Positions 19,575-42,125 of a stretch of DNA of 64,000 nt are shown here, piece after piece (the stretch's first letter is position 1; every line of letters begins with the position of its first letter). The notes below the pieces were generated by a model that saw only the letters and a program-made list of their open reading frames with translations, was not told the DNA's origin and searched no databases. Both the position numbers and the translations under genes were made by a program. Source of the stretch: Candidatus Bathyarchaeota archaeon (lineage in GTDB: Archaea > Thermoproteota > Bathyarchaeia > Bathyarchaeales > Bathycorpusculaceae); the NCBI GenBank assembly GCA_963770935.1, contig CAVYRJ010000005.1, positions 1 to 64,000 on the forward strand, in the 5' to 3' direction.

Positions 19575-20513
19575 TTAGAGTATTTCTCCTATTACACAGA
19601 TCGGTTTAGGAATTAAAGAAGTTAAATCTTCAAGATTCTCCTTGCTAATAGTAGCAAAAACCACGGTTGCGGGACCAGCTGACTTATTCAAATCCAAACC
19701 CTGCGCTTCGCAGAGTTTGAGTTGCCTGCCAACGCCATACGCCATCATTCTCGCTTCACTGGCAATTCCAAACCCTCCAACAGGCCAAATATCATGAACG
19801 TACTTTTTCTGTGAGAGTTGGGTTACGTTTTTTAAGTCTGCAATTTCGCCTCTCGCTTCCGCTGCGATGACTTCGTCTCCGACTTTTGGTTTGCCGATTG
19901 CAACAATTAAGTCGCCGGGGCATGTTTTTCCAAGCCTAAGCTCGTCTTCATTTACAAATCCAACCACAGTTAATCCAACGCCAGTTTGCACGGTTTCAAA
20001 ATTGTCCTCTGTGTTCTCCATCAACACTTGGTTTGGGTCAAGACCAAGACTTTTAGCTTCATGCCTAATTCCCTCAAGTATTGCATTGCCCGTGGGCTCT
20101 TTCTCCACGCCCAACGTAACTGATAAAAGAACGGGAAATGCGCCTGTTGCGGTAACATCCATCAATGCAACCCTTGCCAAGAACTTTCCCAGCACTCGTC
20201 CATTTACTTTGACTTTGTCCATTTCTTTAGGCCCAACAGCGCCACTTGAGGTTGACCCAGCTACGATGGCGTGTCCTGTGGGAACTTTTAGGATTGAGAC
20301 GTCGCCTCTTCTTGTATAGGTTATTTGGGCTGGTTTTACCTGGAAAATTATTGGTCTTAGCATTGTGCCGACATTTTCTGTCAGGTGCAAATAGATGGTT
20401 AATGCTTGACGAATGACCTCTGAGCGGGTGAGGTTGTGTTTTTTTGCTAGTTTATCTATGTCTGAAGTTAATTTGTCGGGTAAGCGTACATTTATAATTT
20501 CCATTATAGTCAC
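19575..20513 (-). CDS. Ribbon-helix-helix domain fused to a PurM-like (alpha-ribazole kinase CblS-like) domain
   Basis: N-terminal INVRLPDKL...TRSEVIRQAL; C-terminal GPKEMD, ARVALMDV, EPTG, TEDNF..VQTGVG, KSAGPAT. Confidence 0.75.
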   Translation of the reverse strand: MTIMEIINVRLPDKLTSDIDKLAKKHNLTRSEVIRQALTIYLHLTENVGTMLRPIIFQVKPAQITYTRRGDVSILKVPTGHAIVAGSTSSGAVGPKEMDKVKVNGRVLGKFLARVALMDVTATGAFPVLLSVTLGVEKEPTGNAILEGIRHEAKSLGLDPNQVLMENTEDNFETVQTGVGLTVVGFVNEDELRLGKTCPGDLIVAIGKPKVGDEVIAAEARGEIADLKNVTQLSQKKYVHDIWPVGGFGIASEARMMAYGVGRQLKLCEAQGLDLNKSAGPATVVFATISKENLEDLTSLIPKPICVIGEIL

Positions 20514-20860
20514 TGTATTATACTCGTAATGTGCTTGAATTCTCTTATCCTTTGTCCTGACAAAGCAAAATCAGATTAATTTACACAAATTCATTATTCG
20601 GCTGAAGAGTCTAATGAAACAAACCAATAAGTTTGATGTATTTACTAGATTAATTGAGCCTAAAGGTCTTTGTTAATCTAATGCGTAATCTTAATAAAAT
20701 GTGAAGCCTACCAATCTTTTAGATCATTGAAACCGCCTTTTAACCAACTTATACAGTTAAAAACTCTAAATTGAGCGAGAATTTTTTTTAGTTTGAATAC
20801 TGAGCGAATAAGCACAAGTGTTATATGTATCATACAACTAAAAAATTGGGAGGGTTCAAA

Positions 20861-21819
20861 TTGAAAAACAAAATTCTATCTTTAAGTCTCATGTTACTAT
20901 TAGCAACCGTGATAATTATCTCCATTTCACCACCAGTTAAGGCTGTAGGTTTAGGGCAATGGATAACAACGTATAAAATCGAAGACTCGACAGGGCAACT
21001 TTTAATTCAATATAATCCTGCGACAAACACAACCAACATTTTAGCCCCAGTTTTACCCGGAGCCGACATTGTAGTGACGTTCACTGTTGATGTTATCGCA
21101 CCAGGTTCAGATACATTGAAGCTTGGCACGAGCTTGTCTAAATCAACATCGCATCCTAATGGATTCTGGGAACTTCTAACTGAAACCTATGACATGGGCA
21201 TCTACATACAATCCAGCATCGCAAACTACAACGTTCAAATGGACTGTCGGAACTTTTGATATGGTACTTTATGGAAAAGTTCCACTTAGCGCATCAAACA
21301 TCGCACGCCCAGTAAACGTCGTTATTTTGTCAAGTGGCTCAGGGGGTGCTCCGCTTGACTCAATAATTGTTCAAGCAACCAGCGCTGATTTAGCGAATTT
21401 CAACGTTCTCTACAGTCAACAAGAGGAAAAACTGAATTCACTCATATCAAGCGGAGTTTCTGCAAGGCTATATCGAGATTTACACTAATGTTCTCAATGC
21501 TTCAAGAGCTATAGCTAATTCAGGTGACGTTACCAATGCAATTGCGCTCTTAAATGGACTCAACGTTGCCAATCCACCAGCATCCTCAGCTATGGAATCA
21601 CTATTCTTACCTTTAGTCGGTGTACTGGCTGCGGTAGCGGTTGTGTTCGTGGTCTTGTTCCTACGGGTACGGGGAAAAATTAGCTACTTACAACTCGTAG
21701 TTGAAGACCAAATTAAAGACTTAGAAGGCTTAACGCTTAGGGCATCAAAGATCGACAGAACAATGTCGTCAAGTTTAGAATCAGTTAAAGACAGATTGAA
21801 AAGATTAGTCGGGATGTGA
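20861..21819 (+). CDS. Single-pass membrane protein with signal peptide, extracellular domain and cytoplasmic coiled-coil tail (frameshifted)
   Basis: GGAGGG before TTG; signal peptide ending VKA; three ORF fragments; C-terminal TM followed by a heptad tail; stop overlaps the next start. Confidence 0.65.
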
Positions 21820-24501
21820 TAGAAACGCGAATCTACCAGAACAGTGTTCAACTAATAGGTATCGGTTCAGCAGGCACCAACATAGTCGAAGCTTTCCTAA
21901 CCAACAAAAAGACAAAAGAGCTAATGGAAAACGACCTGACACGTCTTTCTCTTTTAGCCATCGATATAGCTGACCCTGAAATCCGAAGCCTACAAGAAAC
22001 CAATGAGCAAATAGCAAAATCAATGATTAAAGCAGGCATTCCTCGCGAACGAATGCGGCTAATCGCCCAGTCTGTAAAATTCCCGACTGCCGAAGCCATG
22101 TTCGATTTTATCAACCAAAAATACGGCGAGTACTTAGTAGGTGAAGGTTCAAAGCTTGAAAACTTCGTTCCCTGGCTACAAACCACAATGGCTATTCCAC
22201 CAATGGCTGGTGGCGCTGGCAGAAGAAGAGCTCTTGCAAAAGCAATCTATGCACTAAATTACTATCAACTCGGGATCATCCGTAATTGCATTAACGCTTT
22301 CAAAGAACAAGCGCTTTCATCTATAGTGACTCCGACTGTAATTTTGGTTTATGGACTTGGCGGTGGCACTGGAAGCGGCGTTTTCTTTGACTTTGCTAAG
22401 GCACCTTCGAAAAGTATTAGGTTCCGGCGTGGCAATCATTGCTTTCGTTATTACACCATGCGGTGGCGATGATCCCCCAGCAAAAGGATGCTCAGCCTTC
22501 GTAGCCATGAACGAACTTTCACTATTACTCAACAAGGACTACAACGAATACGTCATAAACGAATTCGGCGAACCTTACCGAAACCCTCTCAACGCTCTTA
22601 TTTACTTGCCATTGTTACCTGCCTTCTCAAAGGTTGGAAACATTGTTAGTGCCAGACAAGAAATGGACCAAATGTTCGTCGACATGCTCTACGTTTTGAT
22701 GGACTTTGACTTAGCAGACCTTCTAGGGGGTATAGGTACCGAAGTAGGACTTACCAACAATTCAGCGCATACCTTAGGCATGACCAAAGTGACGTATCCA
22801 GTTGAAGATTACATTATGGCTTACAAGTTGAACTTTGAAAGCATGCAACTATTGCAGGAATCAAGGAAAGAAAAACTTGATATCATGGAAGAAATCAACA
22901 ATGTTATTAAAGTGGACAGCGACGTTACCCGAGAACTCTTCAAGAACTATCTTATAAAAACTGGCACCTTTAATGAAGAACAGTTCGAAGAAAAGCTGAA
23001 AACCATCATAAACAGCAACCCACGGCTTGAAGACGACAGAACCTTACACGTTAAAGGTACAGAGATACAAGTTAAAAACTGGCTAGACGACATAATGAAG
23101 TTTCTATCTACAATAAAGCTTATGGGCAAAATTGGTCCCATTGAAGAGGCAATCATAAACTTAACACTGCAAAAGGACGGCCACAGAAAACTAGACAATC
23201 TTGAAATCTTACTTACAAACCTAACAAAAACCCATCTGGATTTCCCACAGCGAAAAGCAGCAATTGTGGAACGCTTAAACCAGCTCATTCCAAGCTCACA
23301 AATATTCACCCTAAGACAAAAGAAAGTCCTTGAAGATCTCGTCAACATTGCCGAGCTCGCTGAAAGATCCCTTAGCATACTTAAATTCTACGACGAAACC
23401 CGATACCTGACAGACGCATTAATGCGTTACTACGAAGTTCTACCAGATTCCAAAGCTGAACTTCAAGAGCTAAAAGACATTCAAGATGAACTCGGAACTA
23501 TTTACCTGGTTATTCAACTCATGCTAAGAACACCAGCCGACGAAGCCAGAATGATCGACGAACATTTAACATACATAAATGAAATTCTCACACGCCGCAT
23601 GCAGAAAAGAGGCAACTTTGACAATGAAGTCATGAGAGTTCAAGAGATAAAGAAACGCAAAGAATTCGACAAAACCAAGATGGAGAGACAAGTCAGAAAG
23701 TTCCTGAGCGGCAAACGATATGCAAGAGAACAACTGTTGGAAATCGATAGAGAACTTAAACGCGTTGAACAGGAAGAAGCTTTTGCAATTGAAAACCTCG
23801 ACAAAGTTGACAGCACAATCAAACTTTACGAAAAATTGGTAAAACGGTTCGAATTAGTAGCTGAATACCGCAAACGATTGAACAAGATAGTTGATTTACA
23901 CAATGAGTACAAAGCTAAGACTGCAGAAATAGTTTCACAAAAACCCTATTTCGAGAAATCAGCCGATCTAACTGAACGCGAACAACTAAAAATAATCTTC
24001 AAGATACTTACTGAACAAGAAGATACACTAACACGCGAAGTAATCTTCAAGCAAATCCTCGATATGGACCACTTCAAAGACTATATGAAAAGCGTTATCC
24101 GAGCCTTCAAGACACCAAGCATAATGGGATTCAAACCCACTTACAAGACCGACTACATATGGGTAACTATCTCGACCCCACCTAACATGTGGTCAGAAGA
24201 TCTTTCGCAAGAAGTCTACACTGCACTAGCAGGATATGTAACCAGCGAAGTTTCAAGAACAATCACAGTGCGAGTAATTGAATCAAGAGACGAATGGACG
24301 ACCCGCGTTATGGTGGTAGCCGGACGAGGCAGACCCGAAGACATGGAATCATGGGATGAAATGCAGCTCCTCTTCAGCAAATCCAGCGAATTCGAAAGAC
24401 ACCTATCACGTTCATTCCTACTAGAGCATGGAGTGCACGCTACCAAAATAGTTAAAGAACTTAACCATGCCAACAGCGGCAACAACAATAATAAAAAATA
24501 A
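21816..24501 (+). CDS. Giant tubulin/FtsZ-superfamily GTPase with coiled-coil insertion (one frameshift at ~22398)
   Basis: GIGSAGTNI (T1), GGAGRRR (T3), GLGGGTGSG (T4 signature), DFDLADL (T7-like); long charged helical middle region. Confidence 0.85.
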
Positions 24502-24536
24502 ATAACAACAGCAGAAGTTTTTTTGCCCTTCTGCCT

Positions 24537-24767
24537 TTAAGGTTTTTTCCTTAAATTAACTTTCTTTAGCAGGTTTCTTATTCGATCTGTAATTTTTGGT
24601 TTGTTGGCGTTTTTTGTTCCTTCCATTTCTCTTTCGATGATAATGGGAGGAGCATCATCACTTTTTGCTTCGACAGTATTTGGCGTAGTGTTTGTCATTT
24701 CTTTGTTTTCAACCAATTCATCTATTTTTTCAACGGATTCTGTAGTCATTTCTTTGGGTGTTTCCAA
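24537..24767 (-). CDS. Small acidic protein with basic amphipathic C-terminal helix
   Basis: Starts 2 nt after the upstream stop; ends ITDRIRNLLKKVNLRKKP. Confidence 0.5.
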   Translation of the reverse strand: METPKEMTTESVEKIDELVENKEMTNTTPNTVEAKSDDAPPIIIEREMEGTKNANKPKITDRIRNLLKKVNLRKKP

Positions 24768-24769
24768 TA

Positions 24770-25932
24770 TTACTTGCTCTGGTTCACAGTGGGTACTTCA
24801 GGAATTTGTGGTTTAGCTTCAATTTTGGGTATAACTTGCCAGTCTTCAGTCATCCAGCCCTTCTCAACTGCTTGATTCTTTAGTGCTACTACTTTTTTCT
24901 TCATGTGAGCAAACATTTGGGTAGTGTCAAAGCCGCCTAATAGCAAGGTTACGTCTACTCGGTCAGTCATGTCTTCGGTGTAGACCGGTTCAGTTACGTA
25001 GATTGATTTGAGGTTTGCTTTATCTCCAAACCACTTGGTTATTGCTAATTCGACTTTTCCCCTCTGAAGCTTATCTTTCAGGCTCAGTGGCATACGTAAA
25101 AGCACATAGAGTACTGAGACGCTTGACAGGTCAAAAGTTAAGAGTGGTTTTAGCAAGTGTCGTGTTTAACATGTTTTCCAGTGAACCATAGATCTTGTAA
25201 CTTGCACCGGTAATCAAAAGGACTGTGAACAATTTGCTGTTGAATGTTTTTGATAATTCGGTTACTTCGTCGACGAGTGTCTCTTTAGCTAAAAACAAGT
25301 TTATCATGTAATTTGCGACAGTGTTTCCTTTTATTAGGTTCACCTTGTCTGTCAACGCCTTCAAAGCTTTCAAGATAGTCGCGGTCTAAGAGAACTACGG
25401 TTGCGCCATCGATAGTTTGGCACATTTCGAGGGAAGCGTAGGCGTTGAAATGGGCATCTGCGGGTTGAACTTTGTAGGGTAATATAGCGATTGATAATGA
25501 ATTAATATTTGAATCAATAAACTTTGAAACAAAGGATGGCAATGAAGCGCTGCCTAAACCATCCCAAACTGATGAGAAAATAATTGTTCCGTGGAATTTT
25601 TCCAAGGATTTTTTCTTTAAATTCTCAACTACTGAATTATCTTTTGAAATATACGGCATTACGTTGTACCAGAAATGTGTCTTTACTTTTGCGTCTTCAA
25701 GGTCTAATACAAAGTATGGTTCAAAGCCTTCTGGCAGCCATTTGTAAATTTCCTCGCTTGATTTTTCAATAAAAATTGGTAAGGGACCTTTGGTTATGCC
25801 GTCTTTTACGAACACTTTTATAGGGTATTCACCGATGCAAACTACTGCCTGTCTAGGGAGCAAGGGCTTTAGAGATTCTATATGCTTCTCAACGCTTGCT
25901 AGAACATCAAAAGTATCTTTGCTATCTTTCAT
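24770..25932 (-). CDS. Divergent tubulin/FtsZ/CetZ-fold protein with degenerate GTP motifs (two frameshifts)
   Basis: VVCIGEYP, SSVWDGLGSA, IAILP..QP...HFNAYASL, VLLDRD, KPLLTFDLSS, VDVTLLLGG occur in FtsZ order across three ORF fragments. Confidence 0.65.
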
Positions 25933-25993
25933 CCGAGGTACCTGCATAAGCTTTAAGAGGAGTCTAAGCAAAATAAGGTTTTAGGTTGATTAC

Positions 25994-28403
25994 GTGAAGA
26001 AGCCCTCACTGAAAATTTCTGGCTTAAACTCCTGGTACAAAACGCAAAAGCAGAAGCGTAAAGAAAAGGAAGAACAGGAACGAAACCTTGAGCCTTCGTC
26101 GTTGAAAATGGTTACTTTCGCGATAACTTTGGTTGCCATGGCGCTTGGAATGTCTTTTCTGCCGCTATTCCCCCAACCACTGCCCGTTTTGATCGCTGTG
26201 TTGGTGGCGTTTGTTGCTTACATGAAACCGCAGATTGGGATGCCTATCGGCGGATTTGTCATTGGTTTAGGTTTGATGTATCATTTAGCTGATTTGTCCT
26301 TCATTTCTTTTCTAGGGGATATGGAGGTAAGAGTGGCCTTTATCGTTATTTGGATGGGGTTGTTTGTGGCTTTGCCTCTGTTCTTTAAACGGTACAAGAG
26401 TGCGCTTGCTATCGATTTTGGAATATTGGCCGTAACTATGCTTTTCTTTGCACCTCTCTACTTTTTAGCGATTCCGTTGATTTTGGCCTCAGCTGTGTTC
26501 TTTAAAAAATATGTAGCTCTCACAGTTATCTACTATGCTTTGCTGTCAGTGCCACTTCAAATTATGCAGTATTTCAAATACGTAGTTTTGCCGATTACTC
26601 AGCCTGAGTGGTGGCTTGCACCCGGTTCAAGTCCACCTCTTCTTAGTTCCCTTGAATTTAATTGGCAGAGATCTCACAGCATCGATGAGTCAGTTTCGAC
26701 TCTATGATACATCCAAGGTAATTTACGCTATTGCAGGGCAAACAACATGGACTCCGGATTGGACAGGTCGAACAATCAAAGATGCACTAACCCAGTATTT
26801 GGATTCAATACCGGGCATTTTGATGTTTGTAGTTATTGTGGCTGGGTTAGCATTGACGCTTGTATTCTTCACGAATATGTTGATAAAAGCAGGCGTTCTT
26901 GGCTATGGCGACAAGTTTTTCCAGTGTTTCACTGCAACTCTTGCAGCAGCTTTATTCTTTATTCTGGTAAGTGCTCTACAATTGCCACTCGCCTTTAAAG
27001 CTGACGTTACCCCAATTACAATGATTCTCGGTATTTTTGCGACTCTTCTCCTAACGTTGCCTGCGCTTTTTATCGATTTTACACCAAAGCAGACAACTAA
27101 TCTAAGTGAGCTTAAGCGAAAAGCGGAAGAACTTAACGAAAAATTAGGCGTTTTTGCGGCTCAAGTGCAGAATGTTAAAGAAAATATCCCTGTGGTTGTT
27201 ACTGGTCCAGAAGGAAAATCGTTAGTTATAAAGGATTCAGTTGAGGAGACTCTTAGAAAAATCCTAATGCGGAAATATGACCAATCAGAGTTAGACCAGA
27301 AATTCCAGGAACTTGCCAAACTCGGAAAGGACCAAGATTCTATAGAAGAAGATGTTAACAAAATCTTGTCGGAATACCAAATCTTTGCCAACTGCGAATT
27401 ATCTAATTGGGTAGGCAAACTAAAAGAAGCTGGCTTAGACATCAAAACACCGGTAAACTCTGATTACCAAAAAGAGATGCCCTTGGAGCAACGCATTGAA
27501 GCAATCAAACAGATTTTGGAAGCAGGCAGAGCGGTTGTGCGGGAAGTTGTTGCGGTAGTAGATCCCATTTACGGAATTATCCGACCATTGTATGATCCAA
27601 TGCTTCCTGAAAAATGCCGAGCTGTGGAATTTGCATCTCAGAAGCTTGCAACTAAAGAAGCGCCATGGATTGTCATTGAAGCGCTTGTATACTTCCCTTA
27701 ACAATTGGAGTAGGCAGTATGGAGCTGAAATCCAGACTTCCATGAAGTACCTTAAAAGCTCCTTGCCGCCAATTGCCAATTTGAGCAGTCAGGGCGAGGT
27801 TTTGCCGTTTGTCTTCGGTGAAAACACAACTAAAGTACTTGATTACGCAAAGAAGGCAGAGGCAATGTTGCAAACAGCGCAGAAACGGGTTGAGAGCGAG
27901 AAACTTAGGCATGCTTGATGTGGTTGCGTTGAAGAATGATGTGCTTGAGTTTTTAGGCATTGCCAACGACGTGTTGTCCATGCTTTATAACGATTTAATC
28001 AGCGAGGAAGACTCAATCGAACGTTTACTGCCAACCAAGGATTATCTTATGGGAGCAAAACAGCACACTTCGTGAACGATTAAAGAAGGCAACTGAAACC
28101 CTTGCTAACCCTGCAAACTATAAAATCAACCAGATAATGGAGAATCTACCGCATTACCTCTCATACGTGGATGAATCAGTACAGACACTTGCAATATACC
28201 ACGAACGCAAAGAGTTCCTACTGAATTACCCCTTGGCAGAAGCAGCCATTACGGAACAACTCAAAACCAAAGAAAAACTAACACCCAAAGACTTACCGTT
28301 CCAACCACGCTTTGCCGCAGAATACCTAAGACTCTACTACACCCAAAGGTTTGGCGAGTTTGTATATGACAAGGATGAGCAACTGCTGACAAAAAGGGCA
28401 TAA
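25994..28403 (+). CDS. Large polytopic membrane protein with long cytoplasmic helical C-terminal region (about 4 frameshifts)
   Basis: Five overlapping or adjacent ORF fragments; about 9-11 TM segments, then coiled-coil-like sequence. Confidence 0.65.
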
Positions 28404-28822: not shown

Positions 28823-29498
28823 ATGGCTTTTTTTACTGACCGTGTTGATGCAGGTAAACGTCTAGCTTCAACTTTGAGCAATTTTTCTGGAAAAAAAGGG
28901 ATTGTTTTAGCGATTCCAAGAGGTGGCGTACCCGTGGGCTTTGAGATCGCAAAAGCTCTTAAAATTCCGTTGGACTTGATTATTCCCCGCAAAATAGGCG
29001 CGCCCGATAATCCATGAGTTGGCTATTGGCGCCGTTGCTGAAGATGGAACCGCAATTCTCGATGACAACTTGGTTAAATATTTAGGCGTTAGCCGAGAAT
29101 ATATAGAAGAAGAGATTGAACGGCAAAAACGAGAAATCAGTCGCAGGCTAGAAACGTATAGGCAAGATGCATCCTATCCGAACCTGAAAGGGTTTGACGT
29201 TATCGTTGTAGATGATGGTATAGCTACAGGTTCTACCATGAAAGCGGCATTGGCTTCTGTCAAAAATAGAGGTGCCGCAAGTATTACGGTCGCGGTTCCT
29301 GTAGGTCCACCTTCAACTATTGAAGAACTTGAAGAAATGGCTGACCGCGTGGTTTGTCTCTACACACCTGAATATTTCCAGGCTATAGGACAATTCTACA
29401 ATGATTTTGGTCAAACGGCCGATGAAGAAGTGATAAAACTGTTGCAGGAAAGCAAGCAAAAACTTGCGTATATTTCAAAGGGAAAGGTTGCGGTATGA
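28823..29498 (+). CDS. Type I phosphoribosyltransferase-family protein (frameshift at ~29015)
   Basis: FTDRVDAG, IPRGGVPV, RKIGAPDNP|ELAIGA, VVDDGIATGST. Confidence 0.9.
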
Positions 29499-39740: not shown

Positions 39741-40154
39741 GTTTTTTGCTCCTGGATATTGTTTATTCGTGTTTAGATATATAACTATTATTCAGATTTG
39801 GAATAAAAAGTTATAACAAAAACAAAAAGTATAAACAAAATAGACTCCTGAATGCCTAGAAACCCCTCTCAAGACGGAAAAAACCGTTAAAAATTGTTCA
39901 GACAAGTTTTCATATATGGCTACATAATATGCAGGTCAATGCGTAATAGTTTACATAGAAGTGTTATCTTATTTGCCTTAATTTCATGAAAAATTTCACT
40001 ATTTATATACATAAACCAATACAAAGACAACCTGTTTTTACTTTAAAATTTCCATTTTTCTGCTCAATCACACGAATTTATTAGTTAGCGATATATGTGC
40101 ATGTTAACAAACGTTAATTCTCATTTTACGTATGGATGCTACGGTGCCCTAAAC

Positions 40155-42125
40155 GTGATTTCATGGAAATATACATTTAAACGATTAAATGAAGAATACG
40201 AAATAGCCAACAAAAAGAAGCAAGCCTTAGATAACCTTTTTGAAACAGGCAAAATCTCACAAGCTACACGTGATTCATTCACCGGCGACATCAGCGCAGC
40301 AATAGCTGAAATCGAAAAACAGCGCAAAGACCTTGCCGAAAAGATGAATGCAAAAACCCAAGAACTTGAAGGCCAACTTAAAACATTAGAAATGCTTCTC
40401 GCTAACTACGAAATTCAGCATGTTGTTGGAGAAATAGATGAAGATAGTTACGTACGAGAGATAAACCTCCTCGGAACCACCCTTCAGACAACCCGAAATG
40501 AACTAGATGTGATAAAACAAGCAATAAACCAATTATTTCCCATAGAACCAGCTATCCAAACGCCAGCTGCTCCCGAAACAGTTGCTCAAGTAATCGAAGC
40601 TCCAATTATTCAACCAACGGCGGTAGAAGCGGTCCCTTTAGAGGTCCCAGTGGAAGCTACACCTGTTGAGACAGCCCCTATTATAGAAGCTTGTCCTGTT
40701 GAGGAAGTTGCAATCGAAACTTCTCCAGCAGAAACTCCTGTAGCCGAAGTAGCTCCAATTGAGTGTGCTCCAGCAGAGACTGCTCCAGTTGAAGCAGCCC
40801 CGGTAGAAGCGGTCCCTTTAGAGGCCCCAGTGGAAGCTCCAGTTGAGCAAGCCACAATCGAAGCCCCAGTTGAAGTCGCTCCAATAGTCGAAAGCATACC
40901 TCTTGTTGAAGAAGCTAAAATTGTTGAAGCTCCAACGATTGAAACTCCAATTGTAGAGGGAACCGCTCCAATTGTTGAAGAATCTGCGCCAGTTGAAGCT
41001 GCCCCAATTGTCGAAGCTCCAGTTGTTGAGGCTCCTGCAGTTGAAACTCCAGCTGAAGCTCCAGCAACAGAAGCATCAATTGCAGAGGCTCCAATCATCG
41101 AGACCCCAGCAGTTGAAGCACCCATAATCGAAGCCGCTCCAATAGTCGAAACGCCAGTTGAAGCTCCCATTCAAGTCGTCGAAGAAGCTCCAGCAGAAGT
41201 GGTCGAAGAAGCAGCCCCAGTTGAAGTCGCTCCAATCGAGACAGCTCCAATAGTGGAAGCTGCTCCAGTTGAGCAAGCCCCAATTGAAGCTACACCAGTA
41301 GAAGTAGCACCCACAATTGAAGAAACTCCCGCAGTTGAAGTAGTTGCAGAGGCAGATCCAATAGTTGAGATAGCTCCAGTTGTTGAAGAAACAGCTCCAG
41401 CCATCGAGGAAGCCGCTCCAGTAGAGGTTGTGCCAGTTGAAGTTGTTCAAATTGAGCAAGCTCCAGTTGTTGAGGCTCCTGCAGTTGAAACTCCAGCTGA
41501 AGCTCCAGCAACAGAAGCATCAATTGCAGAGGCTCCAATCATCGAGACCCCAGCAGTTGAAGCACCCATAATCGAAGCCGCTCCAATAGTCGAAACGCCA
41601 GTTGAAGCTCCAGCACCAGTCATCGAAGAAACTCAGGTCATTGAAGCAGCCCTAGTGCAAGAAGCTCCAGTTGTTGAAGCTGCGCCTGAAGCAGTAATCG
41701 CTGAGCCAGCAGTTCAAGAAATAGTTGCCGAAGCTCCAGTTGAAGCCGCTCCAATCGAGCAGCCAATCATCACGGTCGAGGAAGCTCCAGCAATTGAAAC
41801 TCTATTTGTAGAAGCTCCAGCAGTTGAAGCCCCAGCAGAAATAGTCGCTCCAACCGAACCAATTGTAGAAGCAGCTCAAGAGCAACCAACAGTGGAAGCT
41901 CCACTTCAAGCATTCGAAGTAACCGAGCCAACAACAGTTGAAACTACCCTTGAAAAAGTCTTAGAAGAACCAGCAATAGAAACTGTTTCCTTGGTGGAGG
42001 AGGCCCACATTCCAGCCCACCCTTCAGAAGCGCCCCCGGCGGCGCATTCGGAAGTAACAGCGGAAGCGGACAACAGCGACCAAACCCCCCAAGCAGAAGA
42101 AAGCGAAGAAAACACAACTGAATAA
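40155..42125 (+). CDS. CdvA-like coiled-coil protein with very long acidic Ala/Pro/Glu/Val tail
   Basis: N-terminal coiled coil with KKKQALDNLFETGKIS and EIQHVVGEIDE; the rest is EAPV-type repeats; GTG start at 40155 is in frame. Confidence 0.7.
   Translation: MISWKYTFKRLNEEYEIANKKKQALDNLFETGKISQATRDSFTGDISAAIAEIEKQRKDLAEKMNAKTQELEGQLKTLEMLLANYEIQHVVGEIDEDSYVREINLLGTTLQTTRNELDVIKQAINQLFPIEPAIQTPAAPETVAQVIEAPIIQPTAVEAVPLEVPVEATPVETAPIIEACPVEEVAIETSPAETPVAEVAPIECAPAETAPVEAAPVEAVPLEAPVEAPVEQATIEAPVEVAPIVESIPLVEEAKIVEAPTIETPIVEGTAPIVEESAPVEAAPIVEAPVVEAPAVETPAEAPATEASIAEAPIIETPAVEAPIIEAAPIVETPVEAPIQVVEEAPAEVVEEAAPVEVAPIETAPIVEAAPVEQAPIEATPVEVAPTIEETPAVEVVAEADPIVEIAPVVEETAPAIEEAAPVEVVPVEVVQIEQAPVVEAPAVETPAEAPATEASIAEAPIIETPAVEAPIIEAAPIVETPVEAPAPVIEETQVIEAALVQEAPVVEAAPEAVIAEPAVQEIVAEAPVEAAPIEQPIITVEEAPAIETLFVEAPAVEAPAEIVAPTEPIVEAAQEQPTVEAPLQAFEVTEPTTVETTLEKVLEEPAIETVSLVEEAHIPAHPSEAPPAAHSEVTAEADNSDQTPQAEESEENTTE
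41014..41611 (+). repeat. Exact 154-bp intragenic duplication (41014-41167 and 41458-41611)
   Basis: Identical by direct comparison; offset of 444 nt keeps it in frame. Confidence 0.85.

Follow-up and report, generated by a model that had tools for sequence, protein, structure and literature searches.

The FtsZl1 proteins were defined in 2010 by comparative genomics as one of the most diverged branches of the tubulin superfamily, with operons that also encode vWA proteins, kinases, a P-loop GTPase, OmpA-like proteins and many lineage-specific membrane proteins, and a role in membrane remodelling was predicted for them (PMC2875224). The FtsZ-like family of Makarova and Koonin is equated with the Pfam family Tubulin_2 in an excerpt of PMC9871819. 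Another FtsZ-like protein, that of N. maritimus (Nmar_1262), is described in an excerpt of PMC3684127 as having AGKAGSA in place of GGGTGTG, as being without T7, and as forming no polymers when expressed alone in yeast. In alpha/beta-tubulin, as put in an excerpt of PMC13394414, one of the interfaces is catalytically silent, with K254 in beta-tubulin where alpha-tubulin has E254. Here we describe a locus in a 64,000-nucleotide stretch of DNA from Candidatus Bathyarchaeota archaeon (positions 1 to 64,000 of contig CAVYRJ010000005.1, assembly GCA_963770935.1; the whole stretch is called the window below), at which four genes, g1, g2, g3 and g5 (Table 1), encode an FtsZl1/Tubulin_2 GTPase (g2), a second protein of tubulin/FtsZ fold with a movable disordered appendage (g3), and two membrane proteins (g1 and g5). 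The combination of an FtsZl1 GTPase, a second tubulin-fold protein and two membrane proteins is conserved across several lineages of the phylum. An earlier note on this DNA had claimed five genes; four were found, since its fifth, an open reading frame (ORF) of 76 amino acids (aa), is the tail of g3 and is fused to it in relatives.

The product of g2 matched Tubulin_2 (PF13809) with 51 bits for the piece in the window and 55.3 bits for an intact orthologue, relative to a cut-off of 27, and was the sole PF13809 match in the window's genome. The large GTPase, which the earlier note placed in a candidate new system, does not represent a new family and is assigned to the described FtsZl1/Tubulin_2 family, mainly by this match and by its motifs, because the N-terminal domain of the structure model was of low confidence and its Foldseek matches were weak. 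The match of g2 to PF00091 fell just under the cut-off, and in Pfam scans neither g2 nor g3 reached the PF00091 cut-off or matched FtsZ_C or Tubulin_C. In an alignment of 18 orthologues, reaching down to 49% identity, the motifs GLGxAGTN (T1), AGGAGRRR (T3-like), GGGTGSG (T4; invariant in all 18) and MDFDxxD were fully or nearly invariant. The AlphaFold2 model of an 898-aa orthologue (predicted local distance difference test, pLDDT, 69.6) consisted of an N-terminal tubulin-like domain (pLDDT 27 to 78 per 10-residue block), about 380 aa of long helices (residues 329-706, pLDDT about 90) and a C-terminal alpha/beta domain (residues 713-870). MDFDLAD lay in a short loop between helices 276-295 and 299-309 of this model, and would represent a T7-like acidic loop placed where FtsZ has NVDFAD, the T7 loop of the E. 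coli protein in an excerpt of PMC3684127. Foldseek returned FtsZ, TubZ and CetZ with probability 1.00 and E values of 2.6e-3 to 7e-3, mixed with Rossmann-fold dehydrogenases, while the top matches of the full-length model were long-helix noise (dynein and axonemal chains).

No Pfam family was matched above cut-off by g3, for which PF00091 scored 21.9 bits (E 2.3e-4) versus a cut-off of 33. Its AlphaFold2 model was built with 19 homologues (pLDDT 80.5; predicted template modelling score, pTM, 0.80), and all of the Foldseek PDB matches listed for it were chains of the tubulin superfamily, with E values from 4.6e-16 to 7.4e-12, 322 to 441 aligned columns spanning both domains, and TM-scores of 0.56 to 0.72. 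The best matches were TubZ (4ei7, E 4.6e-16), FtsZ of M. jannaschii (2vap) and CetZ (3zid), over 346 to 378 columns; gamma-tubulin, BtubA/B and Odin tubulin were also matched, and CetZ reached a TM-score of up to 0.72 on the target. A profile of the g3 family, compared with PDB sequences, matched Asgard AtubB2 (3.1e-6, the best sequence match) and CetZ (2.7e-5) over the S4-T4-H4-S5-T5-H5-S6 region. The T1 position reads IGEYP and T4 reads WDG[VI]GSA, both of which are kept through the family in alignments, and inspection of the family alignments by eye revealed no conserved pair of acidic T7 residues beyond the core helix. As modelled, g3 is a complete two-domain FtsZ/TubZ/CetZ-like fold with degenerate GTP motifs, and it probably binds no nucleotide at all. 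The earlier note's reading of two tubulin-superfamily proteins, one with intact and the other with degenerate GTPase motifs, was therefore borne out, for g2 by the Pfam match to Tubulin_2 and for g3 by the AlphaFold2 model and Foldseek.

The 76-aa ORF, which had been described as a separate amphipathic-tail protein, proved to be a disordered, E/P/K-rich linker belonging to g3. It begins at the codon right after the in-frame stop (24770-24772) that ends g3 in the window, with an indel near 24789, and its sole Pfam match was to FtsA_C (E 0.01, below cut-off). The tail is fused to g3, giving proteins of 430 to 527 aa, in 109 of the 120 closest homologues listed, and it is fused at loci L014 (477 aa) and L017 (465 aa) as well; six of the seven members of the 90% identity cluster to which the nearest relative belongs are 490 aa long, and the remaining one, of 396 aa, is encoded on the L013 contig. 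In relatives the tail is an E/P/K-rich low-complexity segment that ends in the basic sequence KPKRTRRTKK. The g3 proteins of three other loci (L015, L016 and L018) are tail-less. At two loci (L019, 4664-5500; L020, 5965-6800) g3 carries a disordered N-terminal extension of 270 to 290 aa with repeated KKGFFSFLRRK motifs, the C-terminal tail being absent, and g3 of L021 has a similar N-terminal extension without these motifs. To judge by their sequence, the KKGFFSFLRRK repeats look like short membrane- or partner-binding motifs.

The two membrane proteins matched no Pfam or NCBIfam family and gave no convincing PADLOC match; in the ESM Atlas both fell in unnamed clusters only, with Bathyarchaeota as the commonest taxon. 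In the product of g1, a hydrophobic, signal-like segment near the N-terminus precedes an ectodomain of about 200 aa, and a C-terminal transmembrane helix leads to about 50 aa of cytoplasmic helix (hydrophobic segments by hydropathy at residues 20-38 and 262-280 of the 333-aa orthologue); the best-conserved part of the protein is the cytoplasmic end (84% identity versus 67 to 70% elsewhere). For g5, hydropathy indicated two groups of hydrophobic segments, about nine in all: about five to six transmembrane helices and, past a loop of about 80 aa, three more, beyond which lie about 440 aa of helical cytoplasmic domain. The cytoplasmic helical parts of both proteins are conserved. Both proteins accord with the earlier descriptions of a single-pass surface protein translationally coupled to the GTPase and of a polytopic membrane protein with a long helical tail: the start of g2, a GTG codon, overlaps the stop of g1 in the sequence ATGTGA, an overlap also kept in relatives. 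The gene for g5 is divergent from g3, with about 61 nucleotides between g5 and the likely start of g3.

A scan of one genome per species located relatives of g3 at 73 loci, most of their records labelled Bathyarchaeota or Bathyarchaeia. The gene for g5 was present at 71 of these, g2 stood beside g3 at 69, and g1 was found at 63, and the order g5(-) g3(+) g2(-) g1(-) was observed wherever the contig allowed. Three of the four loci lacking g2 lay at contig ends; the remaining one (L080, 10001-21122) was a real exception, having g3 and g5 with no g1 or g2 within 10 kb. At another locus (L056, 1080-4983), about 3.9 kb of other genes separate g3 from g2. Many of the 73 loci share flank genes, among them the gene for a protein with ribbon-helix-helix and AIR-synthase-related domains (RHH-AIRS), which was conserved beside the module in 53, and more distant genera were therefore examined. 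The g3 profile matched 73 of 401 genomes in an even sample of the class, in 13 of 131 genera (35 of 103 genomes of the window's own family, 3 of 18 in a second family of the same order, and 34 of 71 in a family of another order). At all 12 loci from other genera, another order included, the four genes had the same relative order and orientation, at 51 to 73% identity for g2 and about 27 to 51% for g1, g3 and g5; the flank genes of the window (phosphoribosyltransferase, PRTase; a hydrolase; RHH-AIRS) were not found at these 12 loci. Because the gene order recurs at 28 to 35% identity and with unrelated flanks, the arrangement is far beyond chance. The synteny across Bathyarchaeia that the earlier note had proposed to examine for five genes was thus found, for a set of four.

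Of 40 genomes from the window's own genus, 24 carried the module. When 41 related genomes were searched with the largest fragment of g2, matches were obtained in 15, the window's own included (14 of 24 other genomes of the genus and none of 16 from other genera of the order), and intact g2 frames of 889 to 905 aa were present in nine relatives. The module was not found in two genomes that consist of a single contig, G014 and G413. In G014 one flank gene is kept and is followed by unrelated genes, for a GH5 glycosidase, a CBS protein and a CheB/CheR-histidine kinase, and in G223 a search near the shared flank found no module genes. The module behaves as an accessory cassette.

Beyond the class, Tubulin_2 was detected in 21 of 401 genomes of a phylum sample. 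Four loci from two other Thermoproteota families hold a co-directional, rearranged version of the module, with a g1-like protein (hidden Markov model E values of 1e-24 to 1e-27), a g2-like protein of about 31 to 36% identity, a protein of 806 to 821 aa with the transmembrane layout of g5 and no detectable sequence match to it, and a protein of 319 to 330 aa, two of the four copies of which weakly match the g3 model (1.7e-5 and 1.7e-4) and PF00091 (0.003 to 0.004). At three loci (L147, 3503-4237, minus strand; also L145 and L146) a fifth co-directional gene, for a protein of about 234 to 245 aa without a family, follows the tubulin-like gene. A g2-like gene stands without partners at locus L150, and the Tubulin_2 genes of L148 and L149 are of another kind, encoding about 1020 to 1050 aa.

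The g3 profile detected only 135 clusters (50% identity) among 1.84 billion proteins. Beyond the Bathyarchaeial core these included g3 homologues of 420 to 460 aa with an N-terminal zinc ribbon, which share with g3 the motifs LPS..E.DQ.HFNAY, EIYG.L.NILESA and SDRID..LLLGG, and the named members of which are annotated 'hypothetical protein' in Nitrososphaerales/Thaumarchaeota metagenome-assembled genomes. T4 is canonical or nearly so in 14 of 18 of these proteins and degenerate in four, so that, by sequence, the GTP signature of the g3/zinc-ribbon family is degenerate in some branches and intact in others. One of the members with a degenerate T4 (P0184) led to 14 closely related metagenome contigs, some of them labelled marine, of which nine hold the whole set and the other five are cut by contig ends. 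The E values in this marine set were 1e-41 for the g1-like, 1e-238 for the g2-like and 1e-37 for the g5-like protein, and 1e-41 for the zinc-ribbon g3 homologue. Two further genes were noted there: one for a 326-aa protein without a family, between g5 and g3 on the other strand, and one for a 1478-aa protein right after the zinc-ribbon tubulin-like gene (L154, 11317-15753, minus strand; also L159 and L161), which gave a weak Ig-like (Big_1) match below cut-off and a transglutaminase-core match just above it.

In the window itself the module does not appear as clean genes, and the six-frame ORF list for 20825-28403 consists of about fourteen fragments. When the intact proteins encoded at locus L013, from the closest relative (g2 about 91% identical), were mapped onto the window, they located two frame shifts in g1, one in g2, two in g3, four in g5 and one in the neighbouring PRTase gene. 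Contigs of four runs were aligned to the stretch, and indels were obtained from runs X6, X7 and X10. The contigs from these independent runs were without one base at each of the eight insertion positions of Table 1, which coincide with the frame changes from protein mapping; in one X6 contig an additional T follows 24789, where g3 meets its tail, and the fourth g5 shift, near 27905, falls outside the rows of the contig comparison shown. DNA comparison with the relative likewise indicated that the indels of the window are mostly single extra bases, outside base runs. Because the contigs of other runs lack the inserted bases at the sites of frame change, the frameshifts are assembly errors, neither pseudogenisation nor programmed frameshifting. 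Ten frame breaks within about 7.6 kb could also be taken to mean a decaying cluster of pseudogenes with real frameshifts in this organism. This is hardly credible, given that contigs of other runs, at 92 to 99% identity, do not contain the extra bases, that an adjacent housekeeping-type gene shows the same kind of break, and that orthologues are intact in nine relatives. Since every module gene contains assembly indels, the gene models of the window are unusable as they stand; the split PRTase gene places indel errors beyond the module, so that other gene models of the assembly are probably affected. Part of the stretch was present in 20 public runs from wetland, peat, soil and sediment. Five of these runs are RNA libraries, and contigs of one RNA library cover 21087-24479 with the g1/g2 junction included.

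Table 1. Features of the module and its flanks in the window
Feature	Coordinates	Strand	Description	Basis
g1	20825-21819	+	type I membrane protein	ORF list and tblastn of intact 333-aa orthologue, three frames
g2	21816-24501	+	FtsZl1/Tubulin_2 GTPase, about 890 aa	ORF list and tblastn of intact orthologues
g3 including tail	24537-25932	-	divergent two-domain tubulin/FtsZ-fold protein (modelled); core 25932-24770	
76-aa ORF	24767-24537	-	disordered tail of g3, no gene of its own	
g5	25994-28403	+	polytopic membrane protein, about 800 aa	tblastn of intact 801-aa orthologue, five frames
PRTase flank gene	28823-29498	+	adjoins module; also frameshift-split	
RHH-AIRS flank gene	19575-20513	-	312-aa protein; N-terminal ribbon-helix-helix (CopG-like) and AIR-synthase-related N-terminal domain	
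Single-base assembly insertions	21199, 21462, 22397, 25155, 25340, 26643, 27687, 28045	.		contigs of other runs

Compared with the described systems, g2 is like FtsZl1 in its PF13809 match above cut-off, in the length class of about 900 to 1050 aa, in having a helical region followed by a C-terminal domain, and in its place beside membrane proteins. A T7-like DFDLAD is recognisable in g2, whereas FtsZl1 could not be aligned past H5 in PMC2875224. The published operons differ from the module: vWA, OmpA-like, Ser/Thr kinase and P-loop GTPase domains were not found in Pfam scans of g1, g3 and g5, and their place is taken here by g3 as a second protein of tubulin fold, by g1 as a type I surface protein and by the polytopic g5, about 800 aa long. 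The main text of PMC2875224, the additional files of which list archaeal partner families A1-A2, makes no mention of a conserved second partner of tubulin fold, and neither do excerpts of PMC9871819, PMC5898192 and PMC9723716. Full-text literature searches on FtsZl1, the Bathyarchaeia cytoskeleton and thaumarchaeal FtsZ returned nothing on the module. The earlier note had held that its proposal would fall if the genes did not co-occur elsewhere, or if the proteins belonged to an already characterised family and operon; the genes do co-occur, and the g2 family is already known, yet the composition of the operon is not the published one.

Two tubulin-superfamily proteins are likewise encoded together in the case of alpha/beta-tubulin, BtubA/B and Asgard AtubA/B, the last of which also supplies, in AtubB2, the best PDB sequence match of g3. 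In contrast to those heterodimeric tubulins, no close paralogy links g2 with g3 (hhalign probability 14%), g2 has a helical extension of about 560 aa, the module adds membrane proteins, and the pairing is deduced here from the genes. TubZ, FtsZ and CetZ (of the TubZRC, FtsZ-SepF and CetZ systems) are the best structural matches of g3, but the GTP signature common to all three is lost in g3, the FtsZ_C and Tubulin_C matches are absent from g2 and g3 as given above, and the presence of the module does not follow that of SepF. The degenerate signature of g3 resembles that of Nmar_1262 (WDG[VI]GSA versus AGKAGSA), a comparison that extends to the motif published in the excerpt, and the nearest outgroup of g3 is labelled Nitrososphaerales/Thaumarchaeota. 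Several large families of the phylum sample (f40, 0 of 56 genomes; f46, 0 of 32) were without both Tubulin_2 and the zinc-ribbon family, and many such archaea are therefore without the module.

With some hesitation, and at a little under even odds, we favour the reading that the module forms an FtsZl1 assembly that is driven by GTP, anchored in the membrane and joined by a tubulin-fold partner without catalytic activity, and that this assembly remodels the cell envelope. In this proposal g2 would be a GTP-binding motor that self-associates head to tail in a GTP-dependent manner, and its helical stalk would dock on the cytoplasmic helices of g1 and g5, coupling the cytoplasmic assembly to the membrane and, outside, to the g1 ectodomain. 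One end of g2 would be bound by g3 as a non-hydrolysing cap, nucleator or adaptor, by analogy with the silent interface of the alpha/beta-tubulin dimer, and the g3 appendage (basic tail, FF-basic motifs or zinc ribbon) may tie the complex to the membrane, to a partner or to another polyanion. The output would be local remodelling or patterning of the envelope (vesicles, protrusions, contacts or the placement of surface structures), with the module acting as an accessory and not as the core division machine. A more specific version is rather unlikely: here g2 and g3 would depend on each other in a heteromeric polymer or cap complex, one of them binding and hydrolysing GTP and the other having lost both abilities.

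Several points weigh against the proposed envelope-remodelling assembly. Envelope remodelling is a guess from the architecture, without a functional clue, and the interactions among g1, g2, g3 and g5 are predictions. T6-H7 was not found in FtsZl1, and filament formation was left open (PMC2875224); literature searches found no bench study of FtsZl1/Tubulin_2 members. The T7 assignment in g2 rests on a sequence pattern and on helix positions, in a model with a weak N-terminal domain. An hhalign comparison of g2 with g3 aligned 54 columns around T4 only (E 0.002). The basic tail and the zinc ribbon of the g3 family suit DNA binding equally well, and the RNA-library contigs that cover the g1/g2 junction may contain DNA. 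Prediction of a complex of g2 (1-330), g3 (1-372) and GTP scored 0.00 in both runs, which speaks neither for nor against binding.

In an alternative reading the module handles DNA or the nucleoid, by TubZ-like segregation or by membrane tethering, the g3 tail or ribbon binding DNA and g2 supplying the movement, driven by GTP. TubZ is the best structural match of g3, the tail has its KPKRTRRTKK end, distant homologues have the N-terminal zinc ribbon, and the distribution is accessory and patchy. However, TubZ is only slightly ahead of FtsZ, CetZ and tubulins as a match to the g3 model, half of the module's genes encode membrane proteins, one of them with an ectodomain, and the module lies among housekeeping-type genes with conserved synteny and not in a plasmid or virus context; general Pfam scans of the four genes gave no DNA-binding family, no search directed at TubR or at repeats being included. 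We therefore regard DNA handling as unlikely. The same patchiness within the genus, together with the different genes that stand beside the shared flank in a module-negative genome and a weak match of g5 to PADLOC LmuB (7.7e-5), would agree with a role in conflict or defence, in the manner of the membrane-associated NTPase sensor-effectors found in variable genome regions. But the LmuB match covers the helical region of g5 only, none of the four proteins has a convincing PADLOC match, and Pfam and NCBIfam scans revealed no nuclease, protease, TIR, Sir2 or other effector domain. Defence genes are usually expected to diversify rapidly, unlike g2, which is about 50% identical across orders in a stable gene order, and a defence role appears very unlikely.

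A third possibility is that the module serves as the division apparatus of lineages that have lost canonical FtsZ, with g3 in the role of FtsZ, perhaps through SepF. FtsZ has a disordered linker with a terminal binding motif, and g3 has a comparable linker-plus-terminal-motif layout. In the window's genome, which is 91% complete, PF00091 was not matched at E <= 0.01, yet SepF is present (45 bits, G000:C9:43041-43250), and a strong PF00091 match occurs in only 9 of 40 genomes of the genus. On the other hand, these matches overlap with the presence of the module without any rule: the module is absent from 16 of the 40 genomes searched, most of which are also without a strong PF00091 match, and about a dozen genomes of the genus, the single-contig G014 among them, show neither. 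In family f24, of another order, many carriers have an FtsZ-family gene (for example G063, G079, G126, G134, G158 and G161). SepF is present regardless of the module, in 71 of 81 genomes of the genus, carriers and non-carriers alike, and G014, G017, G128 and G413 all have it. A division role for the module thus seems decidedly unlikely, and the simpler ideas that the module replaces FtsZ and that SepF tracks the module were both rejected, the former because the phyletic pattern shows no rule and the latter because SepF occurs in carriers and non-carriers. SepF appears to persist in the genus without recognisable FtsZ. Elsewhere in the window (40095-42125, plus strand) a 676-aa protein has an N-terminal CdvA-like coiled coil (PF18822, 45 to 49 bits, cut-off 30), followed by A/P/V/E-rich repeats of about 500 aa with a weak, sub-cut-off Extensin-like match.

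With the module, FtsZl1 acquires three constant partners, conserved between Bathyarchaeia and marine contigs with Nitrososphaerales-labelled g3-like proteins, and one of these partners is a second tubulin-fold protein that sequence models miss, which adds a cryptic tubulin-fold family to the inventory of the archaeal cytoskeleton. The vague prediction of 'membrane remodelling' thereby becomes a set of pairwise hypotheses, each open to tests on recombinant proteins. If g2 and g3 do form a heteromer, it would be an independent archaeal invention of the division of labour of alpha/beta-tubulin, wired through g1 and g5 to the cell surface, and the module may offer a lead to why some thaumarchaeal 'FtsZ-like' proteins with degenerate motifs do not polymerise alone, in which case their partner would be an FtsZl1 GTPase.

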